A stretch of DNA of 64,000 nt from Candidatus Latescibacterota bacterium (GTDB taxonomy: Bacteria; Latescibacterota; UBA2968): the NCBI GenBank assembly GCA_965207885.1, contig OZ242311.1, forward strand, positions 1,248,001-1,312,000, given 5' to 3'. The notes below the pieces were generated by a model. That model did no database searches and had not been told where the DNA came from. It saw only the letters and a program-made list of their open reading frames with translations. This document shows positions 37,499 to 52,159 of this stretch, piece by piece (position 1 is the first letter of the stretch; every line of letters begins with the position of its first letter). A program made the position numbers and the translations under genes.

Positions 37499-39043
37499 TC
37501 ACCCGTAGAGACGGCCAACAGTCTCGGGGTGTTTGCGAGCCTCGCGCATGAGGCGATTGCCCCATGTTGTGGGATATTTTCCCGTGACGCACCCCAGACA
37601 CAGGGTATCTGTTTCACACCCAATGCTGGAACCCAGATCGGGGACATCGAGGTACCTCAGGCTATCGACATCGAGATCGATAGCCATTTTTTTTAGCGTT
37701 TGTGTGCTGGGCAAACCGCGGTATCGCACCGGAACGTGTTCGGGGGCAAAGAGTTCGTCCAAAGTGGACATATCAATGCCGTAAAAACACGGCGCAACAA
37801 TGGGCGGACAGGCCACGCGCACGTGCACCTCGGTCGCGCCGCCGATATCGCGCACCTGATGGGCAAGGGTGCGAAGCGTGAGGGAGCGCACAATAGAATC
37901 TTCCACGAGGAAAACGCGCTTGCCCGATAAAACAGAAGCCAATGACGTGTATTTGCTCTTGGCACTCTGCGAGCGAGTGGTTTTGGGCTGGATAAAAGTG
38001 CGCCCCACATAGCGATTGCGAATCACACCTTCCATACAGGGCATATTCAGGTGGTGGGCATAGGCATCGGCTGCTGCTTTGGCCGTATCGGGAACGGGCA
38101 CAACCACACATGAATCGTCAATTTTCTGGCTTTCTTTCTCGGCCAAAATACGACCGGCCTCAGCGCGAGAAGTATAGACGCTGAGGCCATCAATTTCACT
38201 GGCAACATTGGAAAAATAGACCCATTCAAAAAAGCAACGAGCTGTTTTTTTCGGTTCCGTATAGCGCGCAACGCGCAAGTCACCATTTTCGACAATCACC
38301 ATTTCGCCGGGTTCGAGCCATTTTATATCGTTAAAACCGAGGTTAGAAAGAGCCGTTGATTCATTGGCTGCGGCAAAGAGATGGCCTTTCACCCCCCAGC
38401 ACATGGGATGCAAACCGAGCGGATCGCGCGAGACGAACATGCGCCCCGAGGCATCGAGAAAAGCGATATTATAAGCACCGTCAAAATCGCGGGAAAGCGA
38501 GCGCATCACATCGGCCAGATCGGGTGGGTTTTCACCTTTCAATCGATACGCCAGGGTGTGCATGATAATTTCGGTATCGATATTGAGGGTAAAGTGATAC
38601 CCCTGCTTGGACAACAGGCGTTCGCGCAACAGCGTGTAATTGGCCAGATTGCCATTAAAAGCCAGACTAAACCATTTCCAAATACGCCCGTGCTGCCGTT
38701 CAAAGGGCTGTGCATAGCCCACATCGTCTTCGCCACTCGTAGCATAGCGCGTATGTCCAATCGCAGCAATCCCTGCATATTGGTTGATAATAGACTGGAA
38801 TTTACCGGGATGCGACATGCGGAAGGCTTCGGTAACACCACCCAGATCTTTAAACGTGCGCAACAGGTGATCGCGATTGGGGTGATAGGCGCAATACCCC
38901 GCGGCGAGTTGTCCCCTGTTTTGGAGGTCGAGCAACATACTCGGCATAAGTGACGCAACATTTTCAAAATCATCGGTATCGCCGTTTCCCTTGAGCCAGT
39001 AGAGGGCTGCCACGCCGCATTCGTGGCCGATATCTTCGCTCAT
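37499..39043 (-). CDS. purF: Amidophosphoribosyltransferase
   Basis: ECG N-terminal nucleophile, LQNRGQ, GHTRYAT, CFFEWVYF, NRYVGRTFI, VEDSIVR and PCFYGIDM. Confidence 0.93.
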   Translation of the reverse strand: MSEDIGHECGVAALYWLKGNGDTDDFENVASLMPSMLLDLQNRGQLAAGYCAYHPNRDHLLRTFKDLGGVTEAFRMSHPGKFQSIINQYAGIAAIGHTRYATSGEDDVGYAQPFERQHGRIWKWFSLAFNGNLANYTLLRERLLSKQGYHFTLNIDTEIIMHTLAYRLKGENPPDLADVMRSLSRDFDGAYNIAFLDASGRMFVSRDPLGLHPMCWGVKGHLFAAANESTALSNLGFNDIKWLEPGEMVIVENGDLRVARYTEPKKTARCFFEWVYFSNVASEIDGLSVYTSRAEAGRILAEKESQKIDDSCVVVPVPDTAKAAADAYAHHLNMPCMEGVIRNRYVGRTFIQPKTTRSQSAKSKYTSLASVLSGKRVFLVEDSIVRSLTLRTLAHQVRDIGGATEVHVRVACPPIVAPCFYGIDMSTLDELFAPEHVPVRYRGLPSTQTLKKMAIDLDVDSLRYLDVPDLGSSIGCETDTLCLGCVTGKYPTTWGNRLMREARKHPETVGRLYG

Positions 39044-39052
39044 AAAAATCTC

Positions 39053-40156
39053 CTATCCCAATGCCTGATTCTGCATATAATGAATCCCAGCAACGATTTC
39101 TTCGCGCGTCACATCATCTCGTGGCACAATTTTCCCAATCCGCTCGGGCAATACAAAGCGGATGACACCGTCCCGCGCTTTCTTATCGCTTGCCATTCGC
39201 GCCAACACCTCATCGACCTTCAAATCGGGCACACCCCTGGGAATGCCCAAACGGGCAATAAGTGCATTTTGCCGCTCAAACGCATCTTGCGACCACATCT
39301 CCTTTTGCACAGCAATATACCCTGCAGCCAGCATCCCCAAACACACCGCCTCGCCGTGTTTGTAATAATCGTAATGCGTCACCACTTCCAGGGCGTGTCC
39401 CACCGTATGGCCGTAATTCAAAATTTCGCGCAAGCCCTTCTCGGTTTCATCGGCGGCCACAACACCCGCCTTGATGCGACACTGTTGGGCAACGAGCCAA
39501 TTGATCTGATCCGCAGGCAGGCTTAAATTTACCGCACCCTCAATACAATCTTCCAAAAACGCCACCAGACCGAGATCGCGTATAATCCCGTGCTTGACCA
39601 CCTCTGCCATACCTGCTCGCACTTCGCGTTTGGGCAAAGTATCAAGTGTAGCCGTATCGATCAACACCAACTTTGGCTGGTGAAAAGCACCGATCATGTT
39701 CTTTCCCAAAACGTGATCAACAGCTGTTTTGCCTCCCACACTGGCATCGACCTGCGCTTCCAGTGTCGTGGGCACCTGCACAAAATCGACCCCCCTTAAA
39801 TACGTCGCAGCGACAAAACCAGCCATATCGCCGACCACACCACCGCCCAATGTCACAATACAGGATTTCCGATCCATTCCCGCCGCGATCAAATCGCCAT
39901 AGATCTGCGAGGCCGTCTCGAGCGTCTTGTATTGCTCCCCATCGGGCACAGTTACGACCACAACCTTCACACCGGCACGCACGAGACTCTGCTGAACCGT
40001 ATCGAGATAGAGCGCGGCAACCGTCGGATTGGTCACAATTGCCGCTGTTTCTCCCAACCCGCGTTCCGCATACAAATCCCCCAAATCGCGCAAACAATTG
40101 CGACCGATTAAAATATCGTAACTTCGATCAGCTAAATCAACCGTCACTATTTCCAT
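39053..40156 (-). CDS. aroB: 3-dehydroquinate synthase
   Basis: GGGVVGD, PTTL.AQVDASVGGKT, KNMIGAF, LNYGHT and HGEAV motifs. Confidence 0.96.
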   Translation of the reverse strand: MEIVTVDLADRSYDILIGRNCLRDLGDLYAERGLGETAAIVTNPTVAALYLDTVQQSLVRAGVKVVVVTVPDGEQYKTLETASQIYGDLIAAGMDRKSCIVTLGGGVVGDMAGFVAATYLRGVDFVQVPTTLEAQVDASVGGKTAVDHVLGKNMIGAFHQPKLVLIDTATLDTLPKREVRAGMAEVVKHGIIRDLGLVAFLEDCIEGAVNLSLPADQINWLVAQQCRIKAGVVAADETEKGLREILNYGHTVGHALEVVTHYDYYKHGEAVCLGMLAAGYIAVQKEMWSQDAFERQNALIARLGIPRGVPDLKVDEVLARMASDKKARDGVIRFVLPERIGKIVPRDDVTREEIVAGIHYMQNQALG

Positions 40157-40158
40157 TG

Positions 40159-40707
40159 TCAATCCCGATCCAGAACGCGCTGTAATTCAATAAGAGCTGT
40201 CTCTGCTGTGTCTTCGGGCGTGTGATCATTTGTCGAGGTTGCAAACGCATCTGCACGCGCATAAAAACGCTCTCGCTCTGCCATCATCACCTCAATTTTG
40301 TTTTTCAAACCCTCGTCATCCAGCCCGGCCAGCAAGGGCCTTTCATCGCGCTTGCGACTGACCCGTTCAAAAATCGTATCGACAGAAGCGCGGAAACAAA
40401 GACATACACCTGTCTCGCGAATAACCGCCCAATTTCGCTCCTGCGTAATGGCACCACCCCCGAGCGACACGACCACATTGCTCATCTTCGATGCCACGAC
40501 AACCGCCTGGTGTTCCAACTGGCGAAATGCGGTCTCACCGTCTTGTTCAAAAATCTCGGGAATAGTTTTCCCAGCAGCATCGACCAGCAATTCATCTGTA
40601 TCGACAAAGGTCCGCTTCAACCACCCGGCCAAAATGCGCCCAACTCTGGTTTTCCCAGTAGCCATAAAACCGGTGAGAAATATGGGTTTATCAGGTAGAT
40701 CAAACAC
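40159..40707 (-). CDS. aroK: Shikimate kinase
   Basis: GFMATGKT P-loop, GETAFRQLE, LGGG and RPLL motifs. Confidence 0.94.
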   Translation of the reverse strand: MFDLPDKPIFLTGFMATGKTRVGRILAGWLKRTFVDTDELLVDAAGKTIPEIFEQDGETAFRQLEHQAVVVASKMSNVVVSLGGGAITQERNWAVIRETGVCLCFRASVDTIFERVSRKRDERPLLAGLDDEGLKNKIEVMMAERERFYARADAFATSTNDHTPEDTAETALIELQRVLDRD

Positions 40708-40729
40708 AGCGCTCTTCCACTATACGGTA

Positions 40730-42436
40730 TCACATCTGTTCTGGCGTTTTCATCCCCAGCAAAGTTAGGCCCGATGCCAGCACCGTCTTAATCGCATAGA
40801 CCAGTGCAACGCGGGCAGCCGTCAAATCCGCTTGTTCAGAAATAACCTGATGGGCATTGTAAAACCGATTGGCGACCGTACACAATTCAATCATAAGCGT
40901 TGTCACGACAGAGGGTTCGTATTCGTCTGCAGCTTTTTGAATCTGCCCTGGAAATCGCGCAAGACACTTGACGACCTCAATGGCTTCTGGCTCATTTAAC
41001 AACGCGAAGTCGATATCCCTCGGCGGCAAAGTACCGTCATAGCGCCGCAACACGCTGCAATATCGCGCGTGGGTATATTGCAAATATGGACCGGTTTCGC
41101 CGTTGAAATTTAAAACCTCGTCCCAATCAAACACAATATCGCGCGTCCGTTTGGAATCCAAATCCGCAAAAATAATCGCACCAATGCCCACATCTCGTGC
41201 AATCTGATCACTATTGGGCAAATCGGGATTCTTATCGGCAATAATTTTTTGCGTCAACTCAATCGCGCGATTCAGCACATCTTCCAAAAAAACCACATTG
41301 CCCCTGCGCGTTGAAGCCCCACTGCCATCTTTGAATCGCAGCCGCCCAAATTGCACATGCGCGCATTTTTTTCGCCAATCGTATTCCATCAATTCCAACA
41401 CCTGAAACAACTGGCGAAAATACAGCGATTGCGCCACATCCACCACATAGAGCAATTTTTCAAAGCGATATGTTTCCCACCGATACTCCAGCGCGGCCAA
41501 ATCGCGCGTACCGTACAATGTCGCATCGTCGCTTCGCAATGCGATCAAAGGCGGCATATCCCATTTTTCCAAATCCACAATAGTTGCGCCTTCACTCTCG
41601 GTCAGCAACCCCTTTACCCGCAATCGATCCAATGTCGCGGGCATCTTATCCTGGTAAAAACTCTCCCCAGCAATCGACTCAAACCCAATGCCCAGCATAT
41701 CGTAAACGCGATCAAACTCCTTAAAACTCACATCCACGCACACCTGCCACATCCGCACGGCTTCTTCATCGCCATCTTCGAGGCGGCGAAACCAATCGCG
41801 GGCTTCTTGTTCGAGTTTGGGATTGTCTTCAATCTCCTCATTAATGCGAATATAGAGTTCCAACAACTTCTGAATGGTAATATCCGCCGTCAATTCGCCC
41901 TCACCCCAGTAATTCCACGCCAGAATCAATTTCGCAAACTGAGATCCCCAATCGCCCAGATGATTCACCCCAATCACTTCATAGCCCAATGCCCGATAAA
42001 TATTTCGCAAAGCATTGCCAATCACAGTTGACCGTAGATGGTGAATACCAAATGGCTTGGCAATATTGGGATGCGAAAAATCGATCACAACCGTCTTTCC
42101 AACACCGTGATCTCCGCGTCCGTAATCCGCACCCTGTTCGAAAACTGCCGAGAGTGTCTCCCCCACCAAATTGGTCTTCGGCACAAAAAAATTGAGATAC
42201 GGACCTGTGGGACGCACCTCGGAAATTCGCTCACCCGTCGCAATTTGTGCAGATAGTTCTTCGGCAATCAGATGGGGTGCTTTGCGAAAAATTTTGGCCA
42301 ACGTAAAACACGGCAATGCATAATCGCCCATCTCGGGTTTTGGCGGCGTTTCGATCAGCGCCCTCACATCGCCACAAGACATCTCAGTTGCTTTTGACAC
42401 CTGCAATACAATTTCTTCGACAAAAGGATTGACCAT
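40730..42436 (-). CDS. argS: Arginine--tRNA ligase
   Basis: DFSHPNIAKPFGIHHLRST, NHLGDWG, STRRG and GETGPYLQY motifs. Confidence 0.95.
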   Translation of the reverse strand: MVNPFVEEIVLQVSKATEMSCGDVRALIETPPKPEMGDYALPCFTLAKIFRKAPHLIAEELSAQIATGERISEVRPTGPYLNFFVPKTNLVGETLSAVFEQGADYGRGDHGVGKTVVIDFSHPNIAKPFGIHHLRSTVIGNALRNIYRALGYEVIGVNHLGDWGSQFAKLILAWNYWGEGELTADITIQKLLELYIRINEEIEDNPKLEQEARDWFRRLEDGDEEAVRMWQVCVDVSFKEFDRVYDMLGIGFESIAGESFYQDKMPATLDRLRVKGLLTESEGATIVDLEKWDMPPLIALRSDDATLYGTRDLAALEYRWETYRFEKLLYVVDVAQSLYFRQLFQVLELMEYDWRKKCAHVQFGRLRFKDGSGASTRRGNVVFLEDVLNRAIELTQKIIADKNPDLPNSDQIARDVGIGAIIFADLDSKRTRDIVFDWDEVLNFNGETGPYLQYTHARYCSVLRRYDGTLPPRDIDFALLNEPEAIEVVKCLARFPGQIQKAADEYEPSVVTTLMIELCTVANRFYNAHQVISEQADLTAARVALVYAIKTVLASGLTLLGMKTPEQM

Positions 42437-42461
42437 AAAAGACTACCTCTTCTCCAGTTCC

Positions 42462-42926
42462 CTATTTCAAAATATCCAAATCCAAAATTTTCTGTACATC
42501 GGCCTTCACTTGTGCGGGCACGCGAAACCGATAGCTCTTTCGTTGAGAAATGAGTTCCAAATCCCGCTCGGTACGCCACACATATCTCGAAAAACGCTGC
42601 CAGGGCATATAGCGCATACCCATCATCAATCCGCGCGCACTCATGGTCACGCGAATGGTAGCATACGCGATATAAAAAAATTCGAGAGAAAGCAAAAAAC
42701 CGAATAATTGCGGCACAAATCCCACGCCATCTGAGATCGCGGCTCCCCGAAACAGCACAATACCCCCCGTCACAATCAAAAGCACATCCCATCGCTTCTG
42801 CAAAAAAACCACCACAGGCTCTTGTGCATTGGACACATGACGTCGCAATCGCCAATACGCCACAATAGACGCGCCCAATAAAATGGGAGCGAGAATCAAC
42901 ACGATTTGTATAAGTGTCAAAGGCAT
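42462..42926 (-). CDS. Hypothetical membrane protein (DUF5673-like)
   Basis: Three TM segments plus RG...PWQRFSRYVW; tightly coupled to its neighbours. Confidence 0.65.
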   Translation of the reverse strand: MPLTLIQIVLILAPILLGASIVAYWRLRRHVSNAQEPVVVFLQKRWDVLLIVTGGIVLFRGAAISDGVGFVPQLFGFLLSLEFFYIAYATIRVTMSARGLMMGMRYMPWQRFSRYVWRTERDLELISQRKSYRFRVPAQVKADVQKILDLDILK

Positions 42927-42927
42927 G

Positions 42928-43689
42928 TTACGATTTCGACGCCAGATAAATGGTTGCAATCCCAAAGCTCAACCGAACCGCCTGTATATCGGCAAATCCC
43001 GCATCGAATAACCGCCCGCAAAAATCGGCACCTTCGGGAAAATGCATCACAGATTCATACAAATAGCGGTAGGCATTCGGGTCGCGGGAGATCATGTGTC
43101 CAATACGAGGCAAAATACGCTGAAAATAAAAATTGTAAAGGCCGCGGAACACAGGGGTTCGCGGCCTTGAAAACTCCAGCACAGCCACGCGCCCACCCAC
43201 CTTGAGCACGCGGCACATCTCGCTCAGGGCCGTTTCCAACTCGGCCACGTTGCGAATGCCAAATCCGATTGTCACGCCGTCAAATGTCCCCTCACAAAAG
43301 GGGAGACTCTCCCCATCGCCACACAAAAACGCGACCGGATTTGCTCGCGACTCATTTTTTTTTGTACCCTCACGCAACATCGGCACCGAAGGATCGACGC
43401 CGATCACCTGAATATCGCCAGCGCGCTTGCCGCATTCAAACCCCAAATCGCCCGTGCCCGTAGCCAGGTCCAAAATTCGCCAGTTCGGCCCAGGTTGCAA
43501 TCGGTCAATCGTCTTTTTTCGCCACAAAATATCAATGCCCAGGCTCAACAGGTGGTTGAGCAAATCGTATCTGCGGGCAATCCCGTCAAACATCTGCCGC
43601 ACAAAAGCGCGCTTGGCTTCTGGTTTGAGCAACACATCGCGCGCAATACCCGCAGGGGCTTTAGGGCTATCCCTGTGCTCACCTCTCAT
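42928..43689 (-). CDS. ubiE: Ubiquinone/menaquinone C-methyltransferase
   Basis: MFDGIARRYDLLNHLLSLG, LDLATGTGD, GFGIRNV, LEFS and YRYLYES motifs. Confidence 0.93.
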   Translation of the reverse strand: MRGEHRDSPKAPAGIARDVLLKPEAKRAFVRQMFDGIARRYDLLNHLLSLGIDILWRKKTIDRLQPGPNWRILDLATGTGDLGFECGKRAGDIQVIGVDPSVPMLREGTKKNESRANPVAFLCGDGESLPFCEGTFDGVTIGFGIRNVAELETALSEMCRVLKVGGRVAVLEFSRPRTPVFRGLYNFYFQRILPRIGHMISRDPNAYRYLYESVMHFPEGADFCGRLFDAGFADIQAVRLSFGIATIYLASKS

Positions 43690-44557
43690 TTTTTGTGCCG
43701 ACCCGTTTGACAACGACATTTTTCATCACATCGGTCGGTGGCTCAACACCCGTCCAGATCGCAAAAGACCGCGCCCCTTGAAAGACCAGCATATCCAGCC
43801 CTCCAAAAGCAGACGCACCAACCGATTGAAACGCGCGCATCAACTGCGTTTCCAGTGGATTGAACACCGTATCGTAGAGCACCAGATCCGGATGGACAGC
43901 GCGCACATCGTCAAGAGGCGAGGCATTGACCTCGGGATACATCCCCAGCGAAGTGGTATTCACAACCACACCCGCATCGGCAAACGCCCTGCATTGCGCA
44001 TCGACATCCAGCGCACCCACATCCATTTTTGTGCCCGTTATTCTTTCCATATCCACTGCCAGAGCCTCGGCTCGCTCGACCGTGCGATTCAAAATCGACA
44101 CCCGCTGCACCCCATCTTGCGTCCCCAGCGCATACGTCACAGCGCGGGCAGCCCCACCAGCACCAAGCACCACGCAATGCGCGGGAAATGCTTCAATCCC
44201 CGCAATATCGCGCAATGCCGTCAAGACGCCATAGACATCCGTATTGTATCCGACCAGCTCATCGTCTTCACGCGAAATGGTATTAACCGCACCCACAGCC
44301 AGCGCTTCTTCTGAAATGCGATCCAGATGTTCCATCACCGCCAGCTTGTGCGGAATAGTCACATTTAACCCGCGAATATTCAGTCCGCGCAACCCCTTCA
44401 TCGCCTCGCCCACGCGGTCGGGCAACACGTGAAAAGCCACATAACAATAATCCACATCTAATGCGGCGATTGCGGCATTGTGCATATCGGGAGAAAACGA
44501 ATGAGCCACCGGGTCGCCAATAACGCCCAGCACCTGACTTGTTGCGCGAATATTCAT
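43679..44557 (-). CDS. aroE: Shikimate dehydrogenase
   Basis: HSFSPDMHN, NVTIPHK, GAVNT, GYNTD, GAGGAARA and GLDMLVFQG motifs. Confidence 0.95.
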   Translation of the reverse strand: MNIRATSQVLGVIGDPVAHSFSPDMHNAAIAALDVDYCYVAFHVLPDRVGEAMKGLRGLNIRGLNVTIPHKLAVMEHLDRISEEALAVGAVNTISREDDELVGYNTDVYGVLTALRDIAGIEAFPAHCVVLGAGGAARAVTYALGTQDGVQRVSILNRTVERAEALAVDMERITGTKMDVGALDVDAQCRAFADAGVVVNTTSLGMYPEVNASPLDDVRAVHPDLVLYDTVFNPLETQLMRAFQSVGASAFGGLDMLVFQGARSFAIWTGVEPPTDVMKNVVVKRVGTKNER

Positions 44558-44712
44558 CAAGACCTTCGACTGCCATCCAGCAAATCATTTACAAACTCGT
44601 CAGCAATATCAAAACTTTCCTTCCACGAGCAGTTGTATGTATAGCGTATAAATGCCACACCGCCCAGGATCATCAAAATCGCAAATAGCGCGAGCTTAAA
44701 AAGTATCTTCAT
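44557..44712 (-). CDS. Small membrane-anchored protein (51 aa)
   Basis: Not in the ORF track. MKILFKLALFAILMILGGVAFIRYTYNCSWKESFDIADEFVNDLLDGSRRS*; ATGA overlap with the upstream gene and TGATG overlap with aroE. Confidence 0.7.
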   Translation of the reverse strand: MKILFKLALFAILMILGGVAFIRYTYNCSWKESFDIADEFVNDLLDGSRRS

Positions 44713-45368
44713 ATTTTCACCTCTTTTGGTTGAACAACAGTAGATAAACAGGCAAATAACCCGGCGAAATCACGACACATATCACCCGTATTTGACACCC
44801 GGGTTTCGCCCTCGGCTACCAATCCCGCCAGAGTAAAGGTCAATCCCGTGAGGGCATCGCCGCCAGCATCGACCTCTATACCCTCAAGGCGCACAGGTCC
44901 CTGCACCACCAGACCATCGGGCATTTCGCCTGCCTTAGCCCCCATTTGACGCAAATTTTGAATCGTCAGTGATAGGCGGTCAACCTCTCCCTGGCGCAAA
45001 CCCTCTCCATCTCGAATAACCGTTTCGCCCGCGGCTTGCGTGCCCATCACAGCGAGAAAAGGCACTTCACGAATAAATAGATCGGTTTGCTCGCCCCCTA
45101 TACGCGTGCGCCGCAATTCAGACCCCTGGACTTTAATCGTACGCGTCACCTTAGACTTTGATCGCGTCACCTGAATGTCCAATTGTGCATTCAACCGCCG
45201 CAACAAATCCAATGCGCGGCGGGTCTTCCAATCGTCGCCCACGCAGTGAAGGGTTAAATCCGACTGCGATAACATCGCCGCAGCGCCGAGCAAATAAAGC
45301 GTGGTCTCAGGATCCCCTGGAACATCGCACTCACCAATAAGCCCACGCGCTTCCTTTACCTCATACAT
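44709..45368 (-). CDS. Half-length, degenerate EPSP synthase (AroA)-like protein
   Basis: 219 aa. VPGD, A.GETVIRD..LR.GEVDR, L.QMGA..E.PDGLVVQG and GETRV match the AroA C-terminal half, but KESDR becomes GEVDR and DHR becomes DAL. Confidence 0.8.
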   Translation of the reverse strand: MYEVKEARGLIGECDVPGDPETTLYLLGAAAMLSQSDLTLHCVGDDWKTRRALDLLRRLNAQLDIQVTRSKSKVTRTIKVQGSELRRTRIGGEQTDLFIREVPFLAVMGTQAAGETVIRDGEGLRQGEVDRLSLTIQNLRQMGAKAGEMPDGLVVQGPVRLEGIEVDAGGDALTGLTFTLAGLVAEGETRVSNTGDMCRDFAGLFACLSTVVQPKEVKI

Positions 45369-45378
45369 ACTTACCCCT

Positions 45379-46488
45379 CTAACGCAACCGCACTTGATAA
45401 CCCGCATCTCGCAAAATATCGACAGACCGATCGGCTTCCTCCTGCTGCCCAAACCCCATCCGAATCGTCCCCCCTTCGCCTTCGCGCACCTTCAGGACTT
45501 CAATATCTTCAATATTAATTCCTTCGGCAGATAAACGCGAGGCAACATCGGCAATCACACCGGGTTTGTCTTCCACCACCAGCAAAATTTCGTGAAGCGG
45601 ATGCAAAAACCCCTTGGAATCTCTGGGAATCTCTCCGCGAATGCGATTCGCATAGTCAAAATCTTCTGATAGTGCCTCTCGATCCACCTTCTCTCGTATC
45701 GCCACAAGCGCGTCGAGATACGCATTGATCATCTCTCGAATAGGACCGGCATTGGTCTGACAAATATCTCGCCACATCGCAAACGGACTGGAGGCAATGC
45801 GCGTCAAGTCGCGGAACCCACCCGCCGCCATTTGCAGGGGAAGGCCATCGGCCTCATTGAGCCTGCCCACCAATCCCACGAGCGTGGTAGCCATCATCTG
45901 CGGCAAATGGCTCACCGTCGCCGCGACCCGATCATGCGTCTCTGCCTCCATGCGCATAGAACGCGCACCAATGCATTGCACCAGTGCTGCAAGCGCATCC
46001 ACAGTTTCGTCGGAAACACCGCTTGCGGGCGTAAGCACATAAAGCGCGTTTTCAAACAAAAAGGGATCGGCAGCACCCACACCGCTCTTTTCCGACCCCG
46101 CCATGGGATGCCCGCCCACAAAATGCACATCTTCACGCGCAACCTGTTCTGCACATGCGACAATCGCGCCCTTCGTACTGCCCACATCTGTAATAATACA
46201 ACCCGGCGAGGCCGCTTTCACGACCGAGGGTAATTGCTCCAGAATACGCACAATGGGCGAACACAAAAATACCAGATCTGACCGCTTTACGCCATTGTCC
46301 ATCGCGTCGTATCCATAACCACTGTCAATCACATCGAGCGCACGGGCCTCTCGCAGGGTCTCCGCGCGGCTAATACCAATAATCTCGCGCCCAATACCCA
46401 GTCGCTTAAACGCCAGCCCCAGCGACCCGCCAATCAACCCCACACCCACAATGGCAATCGCGGCATCTGTAAACGGAGGATCGTTCAT
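45379..46488 (-). CDS. tyrA: Prephenate dehydrogenase with a C-terminal ACT domain
   Basis: GVGLIGGS, TDVGSTK, GHPMAGSE, HD..A.VSHLP, FRDLTRIA and VEDKPGVIA motifs. Confidence 0.93.
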   Translation of the reverse strand: MNDPPFTDAAIAIVGVGLIGGSLGLAFKRLGIGREIIGISRAETLREARALDVIDSGYGYDAMDNGVKRSDLVFLCSPIVRILEQLPSVVKAASPGCIITDVGSTKGAIVACAEQVAREDVHFVGGHPMAGSEKSGVGAADPFLFENALYVLTPASGVSDETVDALAALVQCIGARSMRMEAETHDRVAATVSHLPQMMATTLVGLVGRLNEADGLPLQMAAGGFRDLTRIASSPFAMWRDICQTNAGPIREMINAYLDALVAIREKVDREALSEDFDYANRIRGEIPRDSKGFLHPLHEILLVVEDKPGVIADVASRLSAEGINIEDIEVLKVREGEGGTIRMGFGQQEEADRSVDILRDAGYQVRLR

Positions 46489-46515
46489 ACAAATAACCTG
46501 ATACGATATAAAATA

Positions 46516-47541
46516 CTAAACCAGACCCGCCAGATCCTTCACAAAAATTTCCGTATCTTCCCATCCCAGGCACGGGTCGGTAATCGACTTCCCAAATATC
46601 CCCTCTTCGGGTTTTTGCGCGCCCTCTTCCAGATAACTCTCCACCATCAACCCGCGCACCACATTGTGAAGCAGCGCGGAATGGCGGCGGCTGCGCATCA
46701 CCTCCAGACCAATGCGCGGCTGTTCGGAAAACGTTTTATCTGAATTATTGTGATTGGTATCCACAATAATCGTCGGATTGCCCAACTTGCGCGTAAGATA
46801 TTGCTCGGCAACATGCATCAAATCTTCGTAGTGATAATTGGGGATGCTTCGCCCATTATACGACATCCCGCGCAACACCGCATGCGTCAGCGGATTGCCC
46901 GACGTACTGACTTCCCAGCCATTGTGAAAAAATACATGCGGCATTTGCGCGGCATAAATGGCATTGAACATCACATCCAGATCGCCACCCGTTGGATTTT
47001 TCATGCCCGCGGGCACATCGACACCGCTAATGGTCAGGCGATGATTCTGATTTTCAACAGACCGCGCCCCCACGGCAATATAACTCAGCAAATCCTCTAC
47101 ATAAGGCAAATTCGAAGGGTAGAGCATCTCATCGGCAGCCGTCAAATGCGACTCGCGAAAAGCGCGAATCTGCATCTGCCGAATGGTCTTAATCCCAACA
47201 ACCATATCGGGCATACCTTTGGGATCGGGCTGATGGGCCATGCCCTTATACCCTTCGCCAGTCGTGCGCGGCTTATTGGTATAAATCCTCGGCACGAGCA
47301 CCAATTTGTCCATCACCTGCTCTTGAAGCTGTGCCAGGCGATTTACATATTCACACACCGCATCGACATTGTGAGCCGAGCAAGGACCAATAACCAACAA
47401 AAACTTATCGCTCTTGCGCTCAAAAATAGCCCGAATCTCGGCATCGCGTTCTTCTTTCTTAGACTTTAAATCATCGGGCAGTGGCAAAACATCCCGGATC
47501 TCTTCTGCACTCGGAATGGGCTGAATCCGTTTGAAACTCAT
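46516..47541 (-). CDS. aroF: DAHP synthase, class I-alpha
   Basis: GPCSA, KPRTTG.GYKG, GARSVENQ.HR, KNPTGG, LRG and SITDPCLGW motifs; allosteric specificity unknown. Confidence 0.9.
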   Translation of the reverse strand: MSFKRIQPIPSAEEIRDVLPLPDDLKSKKEERDAEIRAIFERKSDKFLLVIGPCSAHNVDAVCEYVNRLAQLQEQVMDKLVLVPRIYTNKPRTTGEGYKGMAHQPDPKGMPDMVVGIKTIRQMQIRAFRESHLTAADEMLYPSNLPYVEDLLSYIAVGARSVENQNHRLTISGVDVPAGMKNPTGGDLDVMFNAIYAAQMPHVFFHNGWEVSTSGNPLTHAVLRGMSYNGRSIPNYHYEDLMHVAEQYLTRKLGNPTIIVDTNHNNSDKTFSEQPRIGLEVMRSRRHSALLHNVVRGLMVESYLEEGAQKPEEGIFGKSITDPCLGWEDTEIFVKDLAGLV

Positions 47542-47556
47542 AATAGTACCTTTTTT

Positions 47557-47838
47557 TTAAGACTCTGAATCTGAGTGATCTTCTTCCAACCGCAGTGACT
47601 CATCGATAATCTGTCTAAAAATGCGTTGCGCTGCTTCGTGACTCAAAGGACCGCCATTCAATTCGCGAATGCGGTTGAGGATCAGGGTTTCTCGTTCGGG
47701 GACATGAAAGGGCAAACCCTCGGCACGCTTAATTTTTCCCACAGACAGAGCATACCGAGCACGCTCATTGAGCAACTCGAGAATCTGATCATCTAAGGCA
47801 TCAATTTTCTCGCGCCAGAAATCCAGATCCCTCTCCAT
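47557..47838 (-). CDS. Chorismate mutase (AroQ-type, stand-alone)
   Basis: REKIDALDDQILELLNERA..VGKIK and PERE motifs. Confidence 0.9.
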   Translation of the reverse strand: MERDLDFWREKIDALDDQILELLNERARYALSVGKIKRAEGLPFHVPERETLILNRIRELNGGPLSHEAAQRIFRQIIDESLRLEEDHSDSES

Positions 47839-47841
47839 AAC

Positions 47842-48645
47842 CTACACACCCTCTCTCAAAGGGCCGACCAAAGACCCGACAAACGCCCCCACCTTTGCAA
47901 CCAGATCGGCCTCGTGTTGGTACTCGCCAATGCGGCGCACAATCGCGCTACCAACCACAACCGCATCGGCATATCGCGCAATTTCCGATACATGCTCGGG
48001 CGTTGAAATACCAAACCCAACGGCAATGGGCATATCTGTGTGCTGGCATATCGCAGACACCTTGCTTTGAATTTCATCAGCCAGAGAATCGCGCTCTCCC
48101 GTCACCCCGGTGCGCGACACATAATAGATAAAACCTCTGGTATGCGATGCAATCAGCTTCATCCGATCATCGCGCGTGGTAGGCGTCACGAGAAAAACCG
48201 TATCCAGCCCATGCACATCCATCTGCGCTTTGTAATCGCCGCCCTCTTCCGGAGGCAGATCCAGCATCAGAACACCATCCACCCCCACATCTGCAGCGCG
48301 TTTTACAAAGCGCTCCACACCGTAGCGATGAATCGGATTATAATACGTAAACAGCACAATGGGGATTTCGGTCTCCATCCGCACATCTGCAACCATAGAC
48401 AACACGCCCTCGAGCGTTGCGCCGGCGGCCAAAGCGCGTTGTGACGCCTCCTGAATCACGGGACCATCGGCCAGAGGATCTGAAAAGGGAACACCCAGTT
48501 CCAGGACATCCACACCTCGCCGATCCAGTTCCAACACCACCTGATGCGTGGTATTTAAGTCTGGATCACCCGCCGTAATATACGCGACAAAGCCCGTTCT
48601 GTCCGCTTTTCTCAAGTCTTCAAACCGCTGACCAATCCGCATCAT
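47842..48645 (-). CDS. trpA: Tryptophan synthase alpha chain
   Basis: [34 protein letters not shown] and GFGIS motifs. Confidence 0.96.
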
Positions 48646-49847
48646 CTCACTCCTTCGATAAACCGCGCCGCTTGCTGCACATCTTTGTCCCCGCGTCCCG
48701 ATAAATTGACCACCACAGTCTGATCTCGACTCATCTCGGGTGCCAACTTGCAAACATGGGCAATAGCGTGTGAACTCTCCAAAGCGGGAATAATCCCTTC
48801 GGTATGACTGAGCAACTCAAAAGCACTGAGTGCTTCCTCATCCGTCGCATACGTATAAGTCGTGCGCGCCATATCTCGCAAATAACAATGCTCTGGCCCC
48901 ACGCCCGAATAATCGAGACCAGCCGACACCGAATGCGTCAATGCGATTTGCCCATCATCATCTTGCAACACATAGATGCGCGCACCGTGCAAAACCCCCA
49001 AATCGCCGCCATTAAACCGCGCAGCGTGCTCGCCAGACTCAATACCGTGCCCTCCAGCCTCCACACCGATCATCTGGACATCGGTATCATCTAAGAAAGC
49101 GTGAAACAACCCAATAGAATTGCTACCCCCGCCCACACAGGCGACGAGTACATCGGGCAATCGGCCTTCTCTGTCTAAAATTTGAGCACGGGCTTCAACG
49201 CCAATAACCCGCTGAAAATCGCGCACGATCATCGGATACGGATGCGGTCCCAAAACCGAACCAAAAATGTAAAACGTATCCTCCACATTGGTCACCCAGT
49301 CGCGGATGGCCTCATTAATCGCATCCTTCAGGGTTTTGCTACCCGAATGGACACCCGTAACTTTCGCTCCCAGGAGCCGCATGCGAAACACATTGAGCGC
49401 TTGCCGTTCCATATCTTCAACACCCATGTAAATTTCGCATTTGAGACCGAACATCGCAGCCACAGTTGCCGTTGCCACGCCGTGTTGTCCGGCACCAGTC
49501 TCGGCAATAATCCGCGTTTTGCCCATTCGGTTGGCGAGCAAAATCTGCCCCATGGCGTGATTGATCTTATGCGCCCCCGTATGGGCTAGGTCTTCGCGCT
49601 TGAGATAAATTTTAGGACCGCCGAGTTCTTCTGTCAACCGGTCGGCAAAATAAAGCGGCGTGGGCCGCCCGACATACTCGCCCAAATATCGATCCAGTTC
49701 AGCCCAAAACCCGGGGTCGCGCTTTGCCTCCCGATAAGCCGCCTCAAGGTCTTCCAACAGCGCCATAAGCGTCTCGGGCACATATTGCCCACCATAAGGT
49801 CCAAAATGTCCGCGCGCATCGGGCAAATCACTCGCGTTTACAGCCAT
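48642..49847 (-). CDS. trpB: Tryptophan synthase beta chain
   Basis: [34 protein letters not shown] and SGRGDKD motifs. Confidence 0.97.
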
Positions 49848-49860
49848 ATTGTATATCCTC

Positions 49861-50838
49861 TTAAATATCCCCAACGACTTGGTCGTAAAATGCCAGATAC
49901 CGATCGCAGTCATCACCATCGAGCAATGCCATTGCCTCGCGGGGATGCTGGTTGTGCTGACCCGTGATATTATAGGGCACCAGAGGTCCCCACATCATTT
50001 CGCGGCGCAACTTGACAAAATGCTCTTCCAGCAACTTATAGACGGGACGGATCTTAAACTTGGGATTCCGCAAAAAACCGAGCAACAATTCCATGGGACA
50101 ATTGCCCGCACCGCGACCCAATCCATCCACAGTAGCATCGACCCGATTGGCCCCCAAAATAATGGCCTCAATAGTATTGGCAAATGCCAGTTGCTGGTTA
50201 TTGTGCGCGTGAATACCCACCTCTTTACCCGAACCCTTGGTCGCCTCCATGTATTTTCGCACCAGCATATCGACCTGCTCGCGATACAGCGCACCGAAAC
50301 TATCCACCACGCAAATCGTGCCCACAGGGGTTTCCATCAGCACCTCTAACGCCTGATCAATCTCGACATCTTGCACCTTCGAAATCGCCATAATATTACA
50401 ACTCGTTTCATACCCCTTCTCGTGGGCATCGAGCAACATTTCGACAGTCTCGGGAATCTGCTCGACATAACACGCCACGCGCACCATATCGACCACGCTC
50501 TCGCTGGATGGCAGAATATCTTCGGCCCAATCGCTCTTGCCCGCATCCGCCATAATTGCGAGTTTCATCCCCGTCGCTTCGGGATCGTGATCCCCGGTAA
50601 TTTTGCGAATATCCTCTTCATCGCTGTGGCGGAACGCACCAAAATCTCTTTTGGGGAACATCTCTTTAGAGTTTCGGTAACCAATTTCCATATAATCAAC
50701 ACCCGCCGCGACACATGTTTCATACACGGCCTTCACAAAATCATCATCAAAATGATGGTCATTCATCAAACCGCCATCGCGGATCGTACAATCGAGTACC
50801 TTGAGTTCCGGACGGTAGGTAATCCAGGGTGCTTTCAT
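49861..50838 (-). CDS. DRE-TIM/HMGL-like aldolase (4-hydroxy-2-oxovalerate aldolase-like)
   Basis: [17 protein letters not shown] and GLGRGAGN motifs. Confidence 0.85.
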
Positions 50839-50896
50839 AAAAAATCCTTCCTTTGGAATTAAGTAGTTAGTGAAAAATCTACATGCACCTGCACAA

Positions 50897-52159
50897 TCAC
50901 GCCGACCACCTCACCAAAAAGTAGCGGCGTTTGCCGCGGCGTATCACCAGATATTTTCCAGCCAGTCTTTCAGACGGCTTTAAGACATGACTCATATCTG
51001 TACAGCGTTCTCCATTAATATAAATAGCGCCGGTCCTGATATCTTCGCGCGCCTGTCGCCTGGACGACGAAATCCGCGCATCCACGAGCAAATCTATCAA
51101 GACCACTTCATCAACACCTTTGAGCGTGTAAGACGGCACATCGCTAAACCCTTCTGCGATCTCCTGTTCATTCAAATCCCGCAAATTGCCGTAAAACAGC
51201 GCCTCGGAAATATGCACGGCGCGATCTTTTGCGGCTGCACCGTGGATAAAAGTCGTCACCTCTTCGGCCAGCACGCGCTGCGCCTCGCGCTTCTCGGGTC
51301 GCGCCTCCACCTCTCGTTCCAATTCCTCTATGCGTTCGCGGCTCAAAAAAGTGAACAACTTCAAAAATTTCACCACATCGCGATCCGCTGCATTCACCCA
51401 AAACTGATAAAATTGATAGGGCGATGTCTTCTCGGGATCGAGCCATAACGTACCCGTCTCGGTCTTGCCAAACTTTGTCCCATCCGATTTTTCCAGCAAC
51501 GGGAAAGTCAACCCATACACAGTCTTATTGAGCACGCGCCGACACAACTCTATGCCCGCTGTAATATTGCCCCACTGATCGCTACCCCCGATCTGAAGCT
51601 CACAGCCATACTTTCTGTTCAACGCCATAAAATCATACGCCTGCAAAACCATATAACTAAATTCGGTAAACGAAATCCCGGTTGAAAGACGCGACGACAC
51701 CGACTCTTTGCCCAGCATATATCCCATTGAAAAGTGTTTGCCCACATCGCGCAAAAATTCAATCGTACGCAACTCCGAAAGCCAGGTATAATTGCTCACC
51801 ATCAGCGCCGGATTGTCCCTGGTCTCAAAATCCAGATACTTTTCCAATTGCGCGCGCTGGCACTCCGTATATGCCTGCACTACCTCCAGTGAATTCAACT
51901 GTCGCTCTTCTGCTTTCCCACTCGGATCGCCGATCAATCCCGTGCCCCCGCCCACGAGTGCAATGGGCTTGTGCCCCGCATCCTGAAAGCGACGCAATCC
52001 CATAATGGGAACCAGACTGCCCGCATGCAGACTATCGGCTGTGGGGTCAAATCCGCAATACAACGTCATCTGCCCCTCTGCCAAACGCCTGCGGAGCTTA
52101 TCCTCATCTGTCATCTGAAAAATATAGCCACGAAATGCCAAATCGTCTAACACATCCAC
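50897..52159 (-). CDS. tyrS: Tyrosine--tRNA ligase
   Basis: YCGFDPTADSLHAG, QIGGSDQWGN, KFGKT and a C-terminal S4 domain. Confidence 0.97.
   Translation of the reverse strand: MDVLDDLAFRGYIFQMTDEDKLRRRLAEGQMTLYCGFDPTADSLHAGSLVPIMGLRRFQDAGHKPIALVGGGTGLIGDPSGKAEERQLNSLEVVQAYTECQRAQLEKYLDFETRDNPALMVSNYTWLSELRTIEFLRDVGKHFSMGYMLGKESVSSRLSTGISFTEFSYMVLQAYDFMALNRKYGCELQIGGSDQWGNITAGIELCRRVLNKTVYGLTFPLLEKSDGTKFGKTETGTLWLDPEKTSPYQFYQFWVNAADRDVVKFLKLFTFLSRERIEELEREVEARPEKREAQRVLAEEVTTFIHGAAAKDRAVHISEALFYGNLRDLNEQEIAEGFSDVPSYTLKGVDEVVLIDLLVDARISSSRRQAREDIRTGAIYINGERCTDMSHVLKPSERLAGKYLVIRRGKRRYFLVRWSA

Follow-up and report, generated by a model that had tools for sequence, protein, structure and literature searches.

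A half-size, probable pseudoenzyme of the EPSP synthase family kept beside tyrA and aroE in a Latescibacterota bacterium

The stretch of DNA analysed here (the window; 64,000 nucleotides [nt]) comes from the genome of a Candidatus Latescibacterota bacterium (GCA_965207885.1; contig OZ242311.1, positions 1,248,001–1,312,000), assembled as a single 6.23-Mb contig. Between tyrA and aroE, on the minus strand, the window carries an intact open reading frame (ORF) of 219 amino acids (aa) (P0001; 44709..45368) that is about half the length of 5-enolpyruvylshikimate-3-phosphate (EPSP) synthase (EPSPS), the product of aroA and a two-lobed enzyme of ~415–450 aa. This half gene is most probably a domain-excised pseudoenzyme of the EPSPS family, from which one of the two lobes of the enzyme was removed in frame. 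Confidence is high in what the half gene is and how it arose, and low in what it does. Because the active site of the family sits between the two lobes and needs both, we infer that the half protein is unable to make EPSP. It is presumably kept for a non-catalytic role of the retained lobe. In what follows, G000 is the genome of the window, other G numbers are relatives, and f1–f9 are families of the phylum.

One lobe of the EPSP synthase fold

The half gene opens with ATG and closes with TGA after 219 codons. Its product matched the Pfam family EPSP_synthase (PF00275) with 85 bits (cut-off 22.8), a score that places it in this superfamily, and covered only positions 225–405 of the 417 in the profile. 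On TIGR01356, the equivalog model of functional AroA (EC 2.5.1.19), it reached 94.3 bits (92.6 in the genome search) against a cut-off of 287.25, and it falls outside the equivalog on score, architecture and residues alike. No other Pfam or NCBIfam family matched at E values up to 1. The nearest solved relatives are the class II EPSPS 3rmt, 1rf4 and 3tr1 (93, 92 and 91 bits), with ~30% identity over residues 14–208. The reading frame, the Pfam identities of the neighbouring genes and the partial cover of the profile all bear out the original prediction, made from the letters alone, of an intact ORF of half the EPSPS size between tyrA and aroE. In public databases the protein is named ‘3-phosphoshikimate 1-carboxyvinyltransferase’ (JGI) or ‘hypothetical protein’ (NCBI).

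The protein can be divided into three parts, all encoded on the minus strand. Residues 1–14 (MYEVKEARGLIGEC; 45327..45368) correspond to the retained N-terminal β-strand of AroA, judging by the N-terminus of relatives, the strands in the structural model and the alignment to EPSPS chains. Residues 15–20 (DVPGDP; 45309..45326) form the deletion junction, which in the protein alignments combines parts of the first PGD motif and of the second. Residues 21–219 (44712..45308) make up the C-terminal EPSPS lobe, as indicated by the Pfam cover, the alignment to 3rmt, the AlphaFold2 model and fold searches; this lobe consists of three β-α-β-α-β-β units and carries the degenerate motifs IREVP, GEVDR and GDAL. 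Compared to the full-length homolog of G023, residues 2–17 (YEVKEARGLIGECDVPG) are identical to the N-terminus at 13 of 16 positions, and from residue 15 on the half protein corresponds to residues 232–435 at 64% identity, in agreement with the predicted AroA-like start followed directly by the sequence after the second PGD motif. In each of two multiple alignments, a single gap of ~213 residues separates ‘...GEC’ from ‘DVPGDP...’. Both gap ends in full-length relatives carry a like turn, D-[VLT]-[PA]-G-[DNS]-P, and a short direct DNA repeat is found at the two sites (GGG AAT CCC GAT and GGT GAT CCC GAT in locus L027). The alignments and the repeat leave little doubt that the half gene arose, as originally proposed, when the segment between the two PGD motifs was deleted in frame. 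Since the N-terminal strand is part of the C-terminal lobe in the EPSPS fold, such a cut takes away precisely one lobe, and the other stays whole.

The structural model agrees with this division. AlphaFold2 predicted one compact lobe (predicted local distance difference test [pLDDT], 93.3; predicted template modelling score [pTM], 0.90) with strands at residues 2–4 and 7–15, and thus the single folded domain that had been anticipated. The best Foldseek matches of the model were the class II EPSPS 3rmt and 3tr1 (template modelling score, 0.80 over ~200 columns), and superposition on representative EPSPS chains with VIA-align gave Z-scores of 24–26.5. In the alignment to 2o0b, residues 1..213 of the model lie on residues 3..424 of the chain (Z, 24.0), with the N-terminal strand mapped to the N-terminus of the enzyme.

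The residues that we take to be catalytic or substrate-binding are, in E. coli numbering, K22, R124, S169–Q171, D313, K340/E341/R344 and H385/R386. By alignment, the half protein has K340 replaced by G, H385 by A, R386 by L and IDE by IRE, and retains E341 and R344, while the positions of K22, R124 and S169–Q171 fall in the deleted lobe, which would hold the PGDKS, NSGT, SAQ and RDHTE motifs. Relative to 3rmt and the canonical syntenic copies described below, PGDKS/PGDIS reads PGDPE, IDE(I)P reads IREVP, KETDR/KESDR reads GEVDR and DHR reads DAL. The substitutions quoted in the original prediction stand in this comparison, with one refinement for PGDKS to PGDPE: the residues following PGD derive from the second, mid-protein motif, so that K22 was deleted along with its lobe and not substituted. 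At the position equivalent to K22, full-length relatives have a proline (PGNPD).

Conservation, selection and RNA cover

The half-size ORF occurs in conserved synteny in all 20 other species of the genus (75–98% identity), and its coding sequence is intact in all 21 genomes including G000 (214–223 codons; the half gene of G009 merely has an earlier stop, with the frame intact). Starts are ATG in 20 orthologs and GTG in one, with a purine-rich site before each. Close relatives therefore carry the half gene and not a full-length aroA, which argues against the recent lesion or assembly collapse named beforehand as an outcome that would undo the prediction. Pairwise Nei-Gojobori ratios of nonsynonymous to synonymous substitution (dN/dS) had a median of 0.146 (210 pairs; dS median, 0.34; maximum, 1.27), compared to 0.107 for tyrA and 0.137 for aroE, and maximum-likelihood estimates of omega under the GY94 codon model on a fixed tree were 0.193 for the half gene, 0.147 for tyrA and 0.159 for aroE. 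The half gene is under purifying selection in the genus; the second adverse outcome, a dN/dS near 1, did not occur. It shows neither mark of a pseudogene (stops or frameshifts; dN/dS near 1) and two of the marks of a pseudoenzyme (loss of catalytic residues; purifying selection), a possibility that the original prediction had raised.

RNA-library contigs from two studies cover the half gene. In three sponge metatranscriptomes from one study, contig pieces lie inside the half gene at identities of at least 95%, most of them at least 99%. The second study contributes a coral metatranscriptome, in which a contig of 1097 nt from a related strain spans 44386–45460, with 34 differences and no gaps, and covers the start of aroE, a small ORF, the entire half gene and the end of tyrA. 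Parts of the window are without cover in the RNA contigs of runs X1–X3. The contigs that cover the half gene are consistent with, though no proof of, its co-transcription with its neighbours.

The working EPSP synthase is encoded elsewhere

Three proteins of G000 match PF00275: a full-length AroA, MurA and the half protein. The full aroA (C1:4861050-4862279), located 3.6 Mb from the half gene, scored 391 bits on Pfam and 423.2 bits on TIGR01356, was closest to 3nvs of Vibrio cholerae (352 bits) and 1g6s of E. coli (339 bits), and has the motifs PGSKS, GNSGT, SSQ, DHRMAM and KTFP intact. On these sequence characters it is a canonical, class I-type enzyme and evidently the working one, and the prediction that the working EPSP synthase would lie elsewhere is confirmed at this level. 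The motif that is RVKETDR in V. cholerae and E. coli is RIHETDR in this gene (locus L004, 1495..2811, minus strand), the histidine presumably occupying the position of E. coli K340; the other inspected motifs are canonical.

A copy above the TIGR01356 cut-off is present in 40 of 41 genomes of the order, the exception being the 320-contig assembly of G034, and in 153 of 168 genomes across the phylum. A query with the excised lobe, taken from the nearest full-length relative, had no match in G000, G001 or G011, while it recovered its positive controls in G087 (100%), G023 (53%) and G024 (49%). Elsewhere in the phylum the number of family members varies: G077 (f3) has two aroA above the TIGR01356 cut-off (459 and 422 bits) in addition to a half-size gene, and many f4 genomes have three AroA-family matches at E values up to 1e-20.

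Degeneration preceded the loss of the lobe

The order tyrA–X–small ORF–aroE is conserved, with X a canonical class II aroA in f5, f6, f7 and f9, more distant families outside the class of G000 (motifs VPGDKSISHR, NSGT..R, SAQVKS, RDHTE, PGDISAAAFF, LIDEIP, LR.KETDR and GDHR); in G049 and G050 this syntenic class II gene is the sole aroA. Outside the genus, full-length homologs with open frames of 426–482 aa occupy the locus, the nearest of which are 58–68% identical to the half protein. In the four families of the class of G000 (f1–f4), the syntenic copy lacked the catalytic motifs while still full-length, and such full-length degenerate copies stand in conserved synteny in f1, f2 and f4. Their motifs read, for example, PGNPD or PGERV, GDDDFE, LREGPVDR or LRQGPFDK, and GDVRV or DDAEL; replacement of K340 by G and loss of H385 are common to all degenerate copies, and the full-length ones scored 119–177 bits on TIGR01356. 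As the full-length syntenic copies across families are already degenerate, the catalytic residues appear to have been lost before the deletion, and catalytic degeneration is, on the alignments, the older event. The degenerate G087 protein is nonetheless predicted by AlphaFold2 to adopt a confident two-lobe fold (pLDDT, 93.0; pTM, 0.91). The ratio of excised-lobe to retained-lobe identity is 0.71–0.77 in the full-length degenerate forms, compared to 0.86 in canonical copies, and the excised lobe of the degenerate forms is 23–27% identical to canonical copies, compared to 38–39%.

In a maximum-likelihood tree built from 31 retained-lobe sequences, the degenerate copies group as one clade (support, 93/97) beside the canonical syntenic class II genes. 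Within it, the halves of the genus form one clade (100/99) nested in the full-length f1 forms (99/97), and the halves of a second family, f3, branch apart (100/99) at the base of f1+f2. Forcing all halves into a single clade costs 49.6 log-likelihood units and is rejected by the approximately unbiased (AU) test (p = 3.8e-5, for a group named after the tree was seen). The tree indicates that the same lobe was lost independently in f3, and parsimony on it requires at least three truncation events. The f3 half genes of G077 and G078 have open frames of 223 and 228 aa in the order tyrA–half gene–small ORF–aroE and are ~40% identical to the half protein, with a different junction (LPEGKWNT). In G078 (locus L051, 168..1371) two unrelated ORFs, by eye a small HicB-like protein and a phosphotransferase- or kinase-like protein of ~320 aa, lie between tyrA and the half gene, and the remainder of the order is intact.

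A search of 1.84 billion representative sequences returned 12 proteins at E values up to 1e-30, one of which, P0099 (215 aa), belongs to f3, is encoded on contigs of 643 kb and 5.8 Mb, and has the N-terminal strand followed by the lobe. Among the 150 best representatives, this architecture was found only in the genus and in P0099. Twelve short representatives (187–254 aa) were rejected as further cases: they are C-terminal fragments of canonical AroA that begin inside the other lobe, keep KESDR (12 of 12) and DHR (11 of 12, one being garbled), and in no instance show the strand-plus-lobe architecture. Three AroA homologs from uncultured bacteria (P0094, P0096 and P0106; 429–457 aa) have partly lost the motifs, the first reading PGDPF, PGDRS or PGDNS and the last GDGR, GDHL or KDDR, and may represent degenerate class II AroA paralogs outside the phylum, although P0094 is known from short contigs only.

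Origin and possible role of the half gene

The simplest history arranges the observations into a single sequence of events. The ancestral block of the phylum was DAHP (3-deoxy-D-arabino-heptulosonate 7-phosphate) synthase–tyrA–class II aroA–small ORF–aroE. In the class of G000 a class I-type aroA located elsewhere, with its catalytic motifs intact, would have become the working enzyme, and the resident class II copy lost its catalytic and substrate-binding residues and persisted as a full-length, well-folded pseudoenzyme. In the ancestor of the genus, a deletion between two short direct repeats then removed the whole inserted lobe. These repeats encode the D-x-P-G-D/N-P turns at the two points at which the chain passes from one lobe to the other. 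The remaining N-terminal strand and C-terminal half together constitute one complete EPSPS lobe. The fixed place of the gene in an aromatic amino-acid operon, with which it is apparently co-transcribed, favours a binding, scaffold or regulatory role toward an enzyme of that pathway, which is our best guess as to its function.

Several observations weigh against a retained, domain-excised pseudoenzyme. The gene is reduced to a 174-aa C-terminal stub in G026 and is fully deleted between tyrA and the small ORF in G028, and is so dispensable in at least one species. Across genera the half gene diverges faster than its neighbours (59–64% identity to G023 and G024, compared to 70–78% for tyrA and aroE), lobes of different species of the genus carry net charges anywhere between −4 and +7, and, apart from the fold-core motifs, the alignment revealed no set of cleft or surface residues shared throughout the degenerate clade. 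The after-the-fact choice of the group in the AU test counts on the same side, as does the nature of the assembled RNA-library contigs, which give neither strand nor level and could reflect DNA carry-over.

A more specific form of the proposed role, which we hold to be possible and put forward tentatively, places the working part of an AroA-derived pseudoenzyme, common to the whole class, in the retained lobe. It would serve as an adaptor or as a regulatory subunit in aromatic amino-acid biosynthesis, with TyrA, AroE, DAHP synthase or the active AroA as possible binding partners. On this view the other lobe could be spared, which would explain its clean excision on at least two occasions. The half protein may also pair with itself and rebuild a two-lobed clamshell like that of the presumed half-size ancestor of EPSPS and MurA.

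The same losses could instead mark slow decay, with the half gene a functionless remnant and a stage in piecemeal loss after displacement by the class I aroA. The complete loss in G028, the stub in G026, the removal of the same lobe twice, the faster divergence between genera and the lower relative conservation of the excised lobe (0.71–0.77 versus 0.86) all fit such a course. We nevertheless consider it unlikely: all 21 ORFs are intact at dS up to 1.27 with dN/dS and omega like those of the flanking enzymes, the start codon and a ribosome-binding-like site are kept in 21 of 21, full-length degenerate forms persist in four families, with the G087 form still predicted to fold confidently, and the half gene is covered by RNA-library contigs.

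About equally improbable is a new activity. In this reading the lobe, which keeps part of the anion-binding helix N-termini (E128, D130, R131 and D171), would have a phosphorylated or carboxylated pathway metabolite as its ligand or substrate. The GEVDR and GD motifs are partly kept in the genus and the gene lies inside an aromatic amino-acid operon, but the equivalents of R344 and R386 are not conserved across the degenerate clade: C, V, S or L stands at the former position in most copies of f2 and in several of f1 and f4, and the latter is lost in f3, f4 and G000. An EPSPS active site, moreover, needs both lobes, and no match to any other Pfam or NCBIfam family was obtained.

There is very little to recommend the idea that the frame stays open only to carry ribosomes from tyrA to the small ORF and aroE, the protein sequence being irrelevant. 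The gap of 10 nt after tyrA and the ATGA overlap with the small ORF in many orthologs would suit translational coupling, but the constraint acts at the level of amino acids (dN/dS, 0.146; omega, 0.193), G028 has deleted the gene yet retains the small ORF and aroE, and G078 has unrelated genes between tyrA and the half gene. Least probable of all is half of a split enzyme, the other alternative in the original prediction, in which an N-terminal lobe from another gene, or a lobe supplied by the canonical AroA, would complete the protein: laboratory-split EPSPS fragments are able to reassemble, but only aroA, murA and the half gene match PF00275 in the genome, the excised-lobe query found nothing in G000, G001 or G011 while its controls were recovered, and the retained lobe is without K340, H385 and R386.

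Comparison with known systems

The half protein resembles the class II EPSPS of Bacillus halodurans (3RMT), Streptococcus pneumoniae (1RF4) and Coxiella burnetii (3TR1) in the fold of one lobe, and the half gene shares with class II aroA the ancestral position by tyrA and aroE in the phylum; it differs in having half the length, in the excision of the lobe with PGDKS, NSGT, SAQ and RDHTE, and in the replacement of K340, H385 and R386. The full-length degenerate paralogs (G023, G024, G087, f2 and f4) occupy the same locus and likewise have G in place of K340 and lack H385, but keep both lobes. The f3 halves (P0099; G077 and G078) have the same architecture and position and differ in junction and clade. 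The N-terminal domain of E. coli EPSPS, isolated as a laboratory construct (1P88/1P89), is another free single lobe of similar structure (Z, 12.7 over 175 residues) and binds shikimate-3-phosphate; it corresponds, however, to the lobe that the half protein has lost.

Proteins of the RtcA/Rcl1 group (3KGD, 4O89 and 4CLQ) consist of one lobe of the same three-unit fold (Z, 10.8–12.4; 187–189 residues aligned), but are only 8–10% identical to the half protein, contain an additional, inserted domain and work on RNA. Within this group, Rcl1 is considered non-catalytic and to act through the binding of a partner. Membership of the half protein in the RTC family was considered and rejected, as no Pfam or NCBIfam match was obtained at E values up to 1 and the likeness is one of fold only. 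A nucleic-acid-binding function, suggested by the many arginines, was likewise dropped, since the charge is variable and the segments ‘RR...LLRR’ and ‘ELRRTRI’ also occur in the canonical class II copies of the phylum. The kind of role proposed for the half protein has a counterpart in HisZ, a regulatory pseudoenzyme paralog that works with HisG in amino-acid biosynthesis: both are dead paralogs kept beside pathway genes, although the fold of HisZ is unrelated.

Full-text literature searches, limited to main texts, turned up no description of an EPSPS pseudoenzyme or of a single-lobe EPSPS in nature. A preprint on EPSPS classification, in its matched passages, mentions ‘unclassified’ EPSPS and not single-lobe or pseudoenzyme forms (10.1101/2020.05.27.118265).

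Pathway reconstructions or surveys of glyphosate sensitivity that count PF00275 matches would misread the half gene. The inserted lobe appears to have been removed exactly at two sequence-similar crossover turns, independently in two lineages, and the half protein would show, in a natural setting, that a single lobe of the ‘inside-out’ fold can fold alone, as predicted by the model, and be selected alone. Within one phylum, the locus lays out a probable path of gene fate from displacement to pseudoenzyme, domain loss and complete loss, and it offers a tractable system for asking why a dead shikimate-pathway enzyme is kept.

The surrounding locus

The half gene follows tyrA by 10 nt (tyrA stop to ATG). 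A Shine-Dalgarno-like site, AGAGGGG (45374..45380, minus strand), overlaps the TAG stop codon of tyrA (45379–45381). The gene tyrA itself (45379..46488, minus strand) encodes a prephenate dehydrogenase with a C-terminal ACT domain (Pfam PDH_N, PDH_C and ACT) and lies directly upstream in conserved synteny; upstream of it, in the same conserved block, is DAHP synthase (46516..47541, minus strand; Pfam DAHP_synth_1). Downstream, also in conserved synteny, is aroE (43679..44560, minus strand), encoding shikimate dehydrogenase (Pfam Shikimate_dh_N and SDH_C). An Rfam scan of 38000–52000 yielded no family reaching its gathering score, and a scan for promoters and terminators gave counts no different from shuffled sequence.

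These genes are part of a same-strand aromatic amino-acid block (39053..50838, minus strand) with the order trpB, trpA, chorismate mutase, DAHP synthase, tyrA, half gene, small ORF and aroE, followed by a ubiE/menG-like methyltransferase, a membrane protein and argS, and then by aroK and aroB. Gene names in the block were read from translations, except for tyrA, aroE, DAHP synthase and the small ORF, which were checked against Pfam.

The small ORF between the half gene and aroE (51 aa; 44557..44712, minus strand) opens with an ATG that shares bases with the TGA stop of the half gene (ATGA), and its own stop overlaps the start of aroE. It belongs to no Pfam family, and a search of the ESM Atlas gave only an unnamed cluster (score, 0.75). 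Its product (MKILFKLALFAIL...CSWKESFDIADEFVNDLL) has, by eye, a hydrophobic N-terminal stretch, which looks like a putative membrane helix, and a conserved acidic C-terminal stretch. The small ORF is 62–100% identical in all 28 loci examined and is found phylum-wide in 24 aligned sequences. It also adjoins the canonical class II aroA, is retained in G028 despite the loss of the AroA-like gene, and is more conserved than the AroA-like gene next to it.

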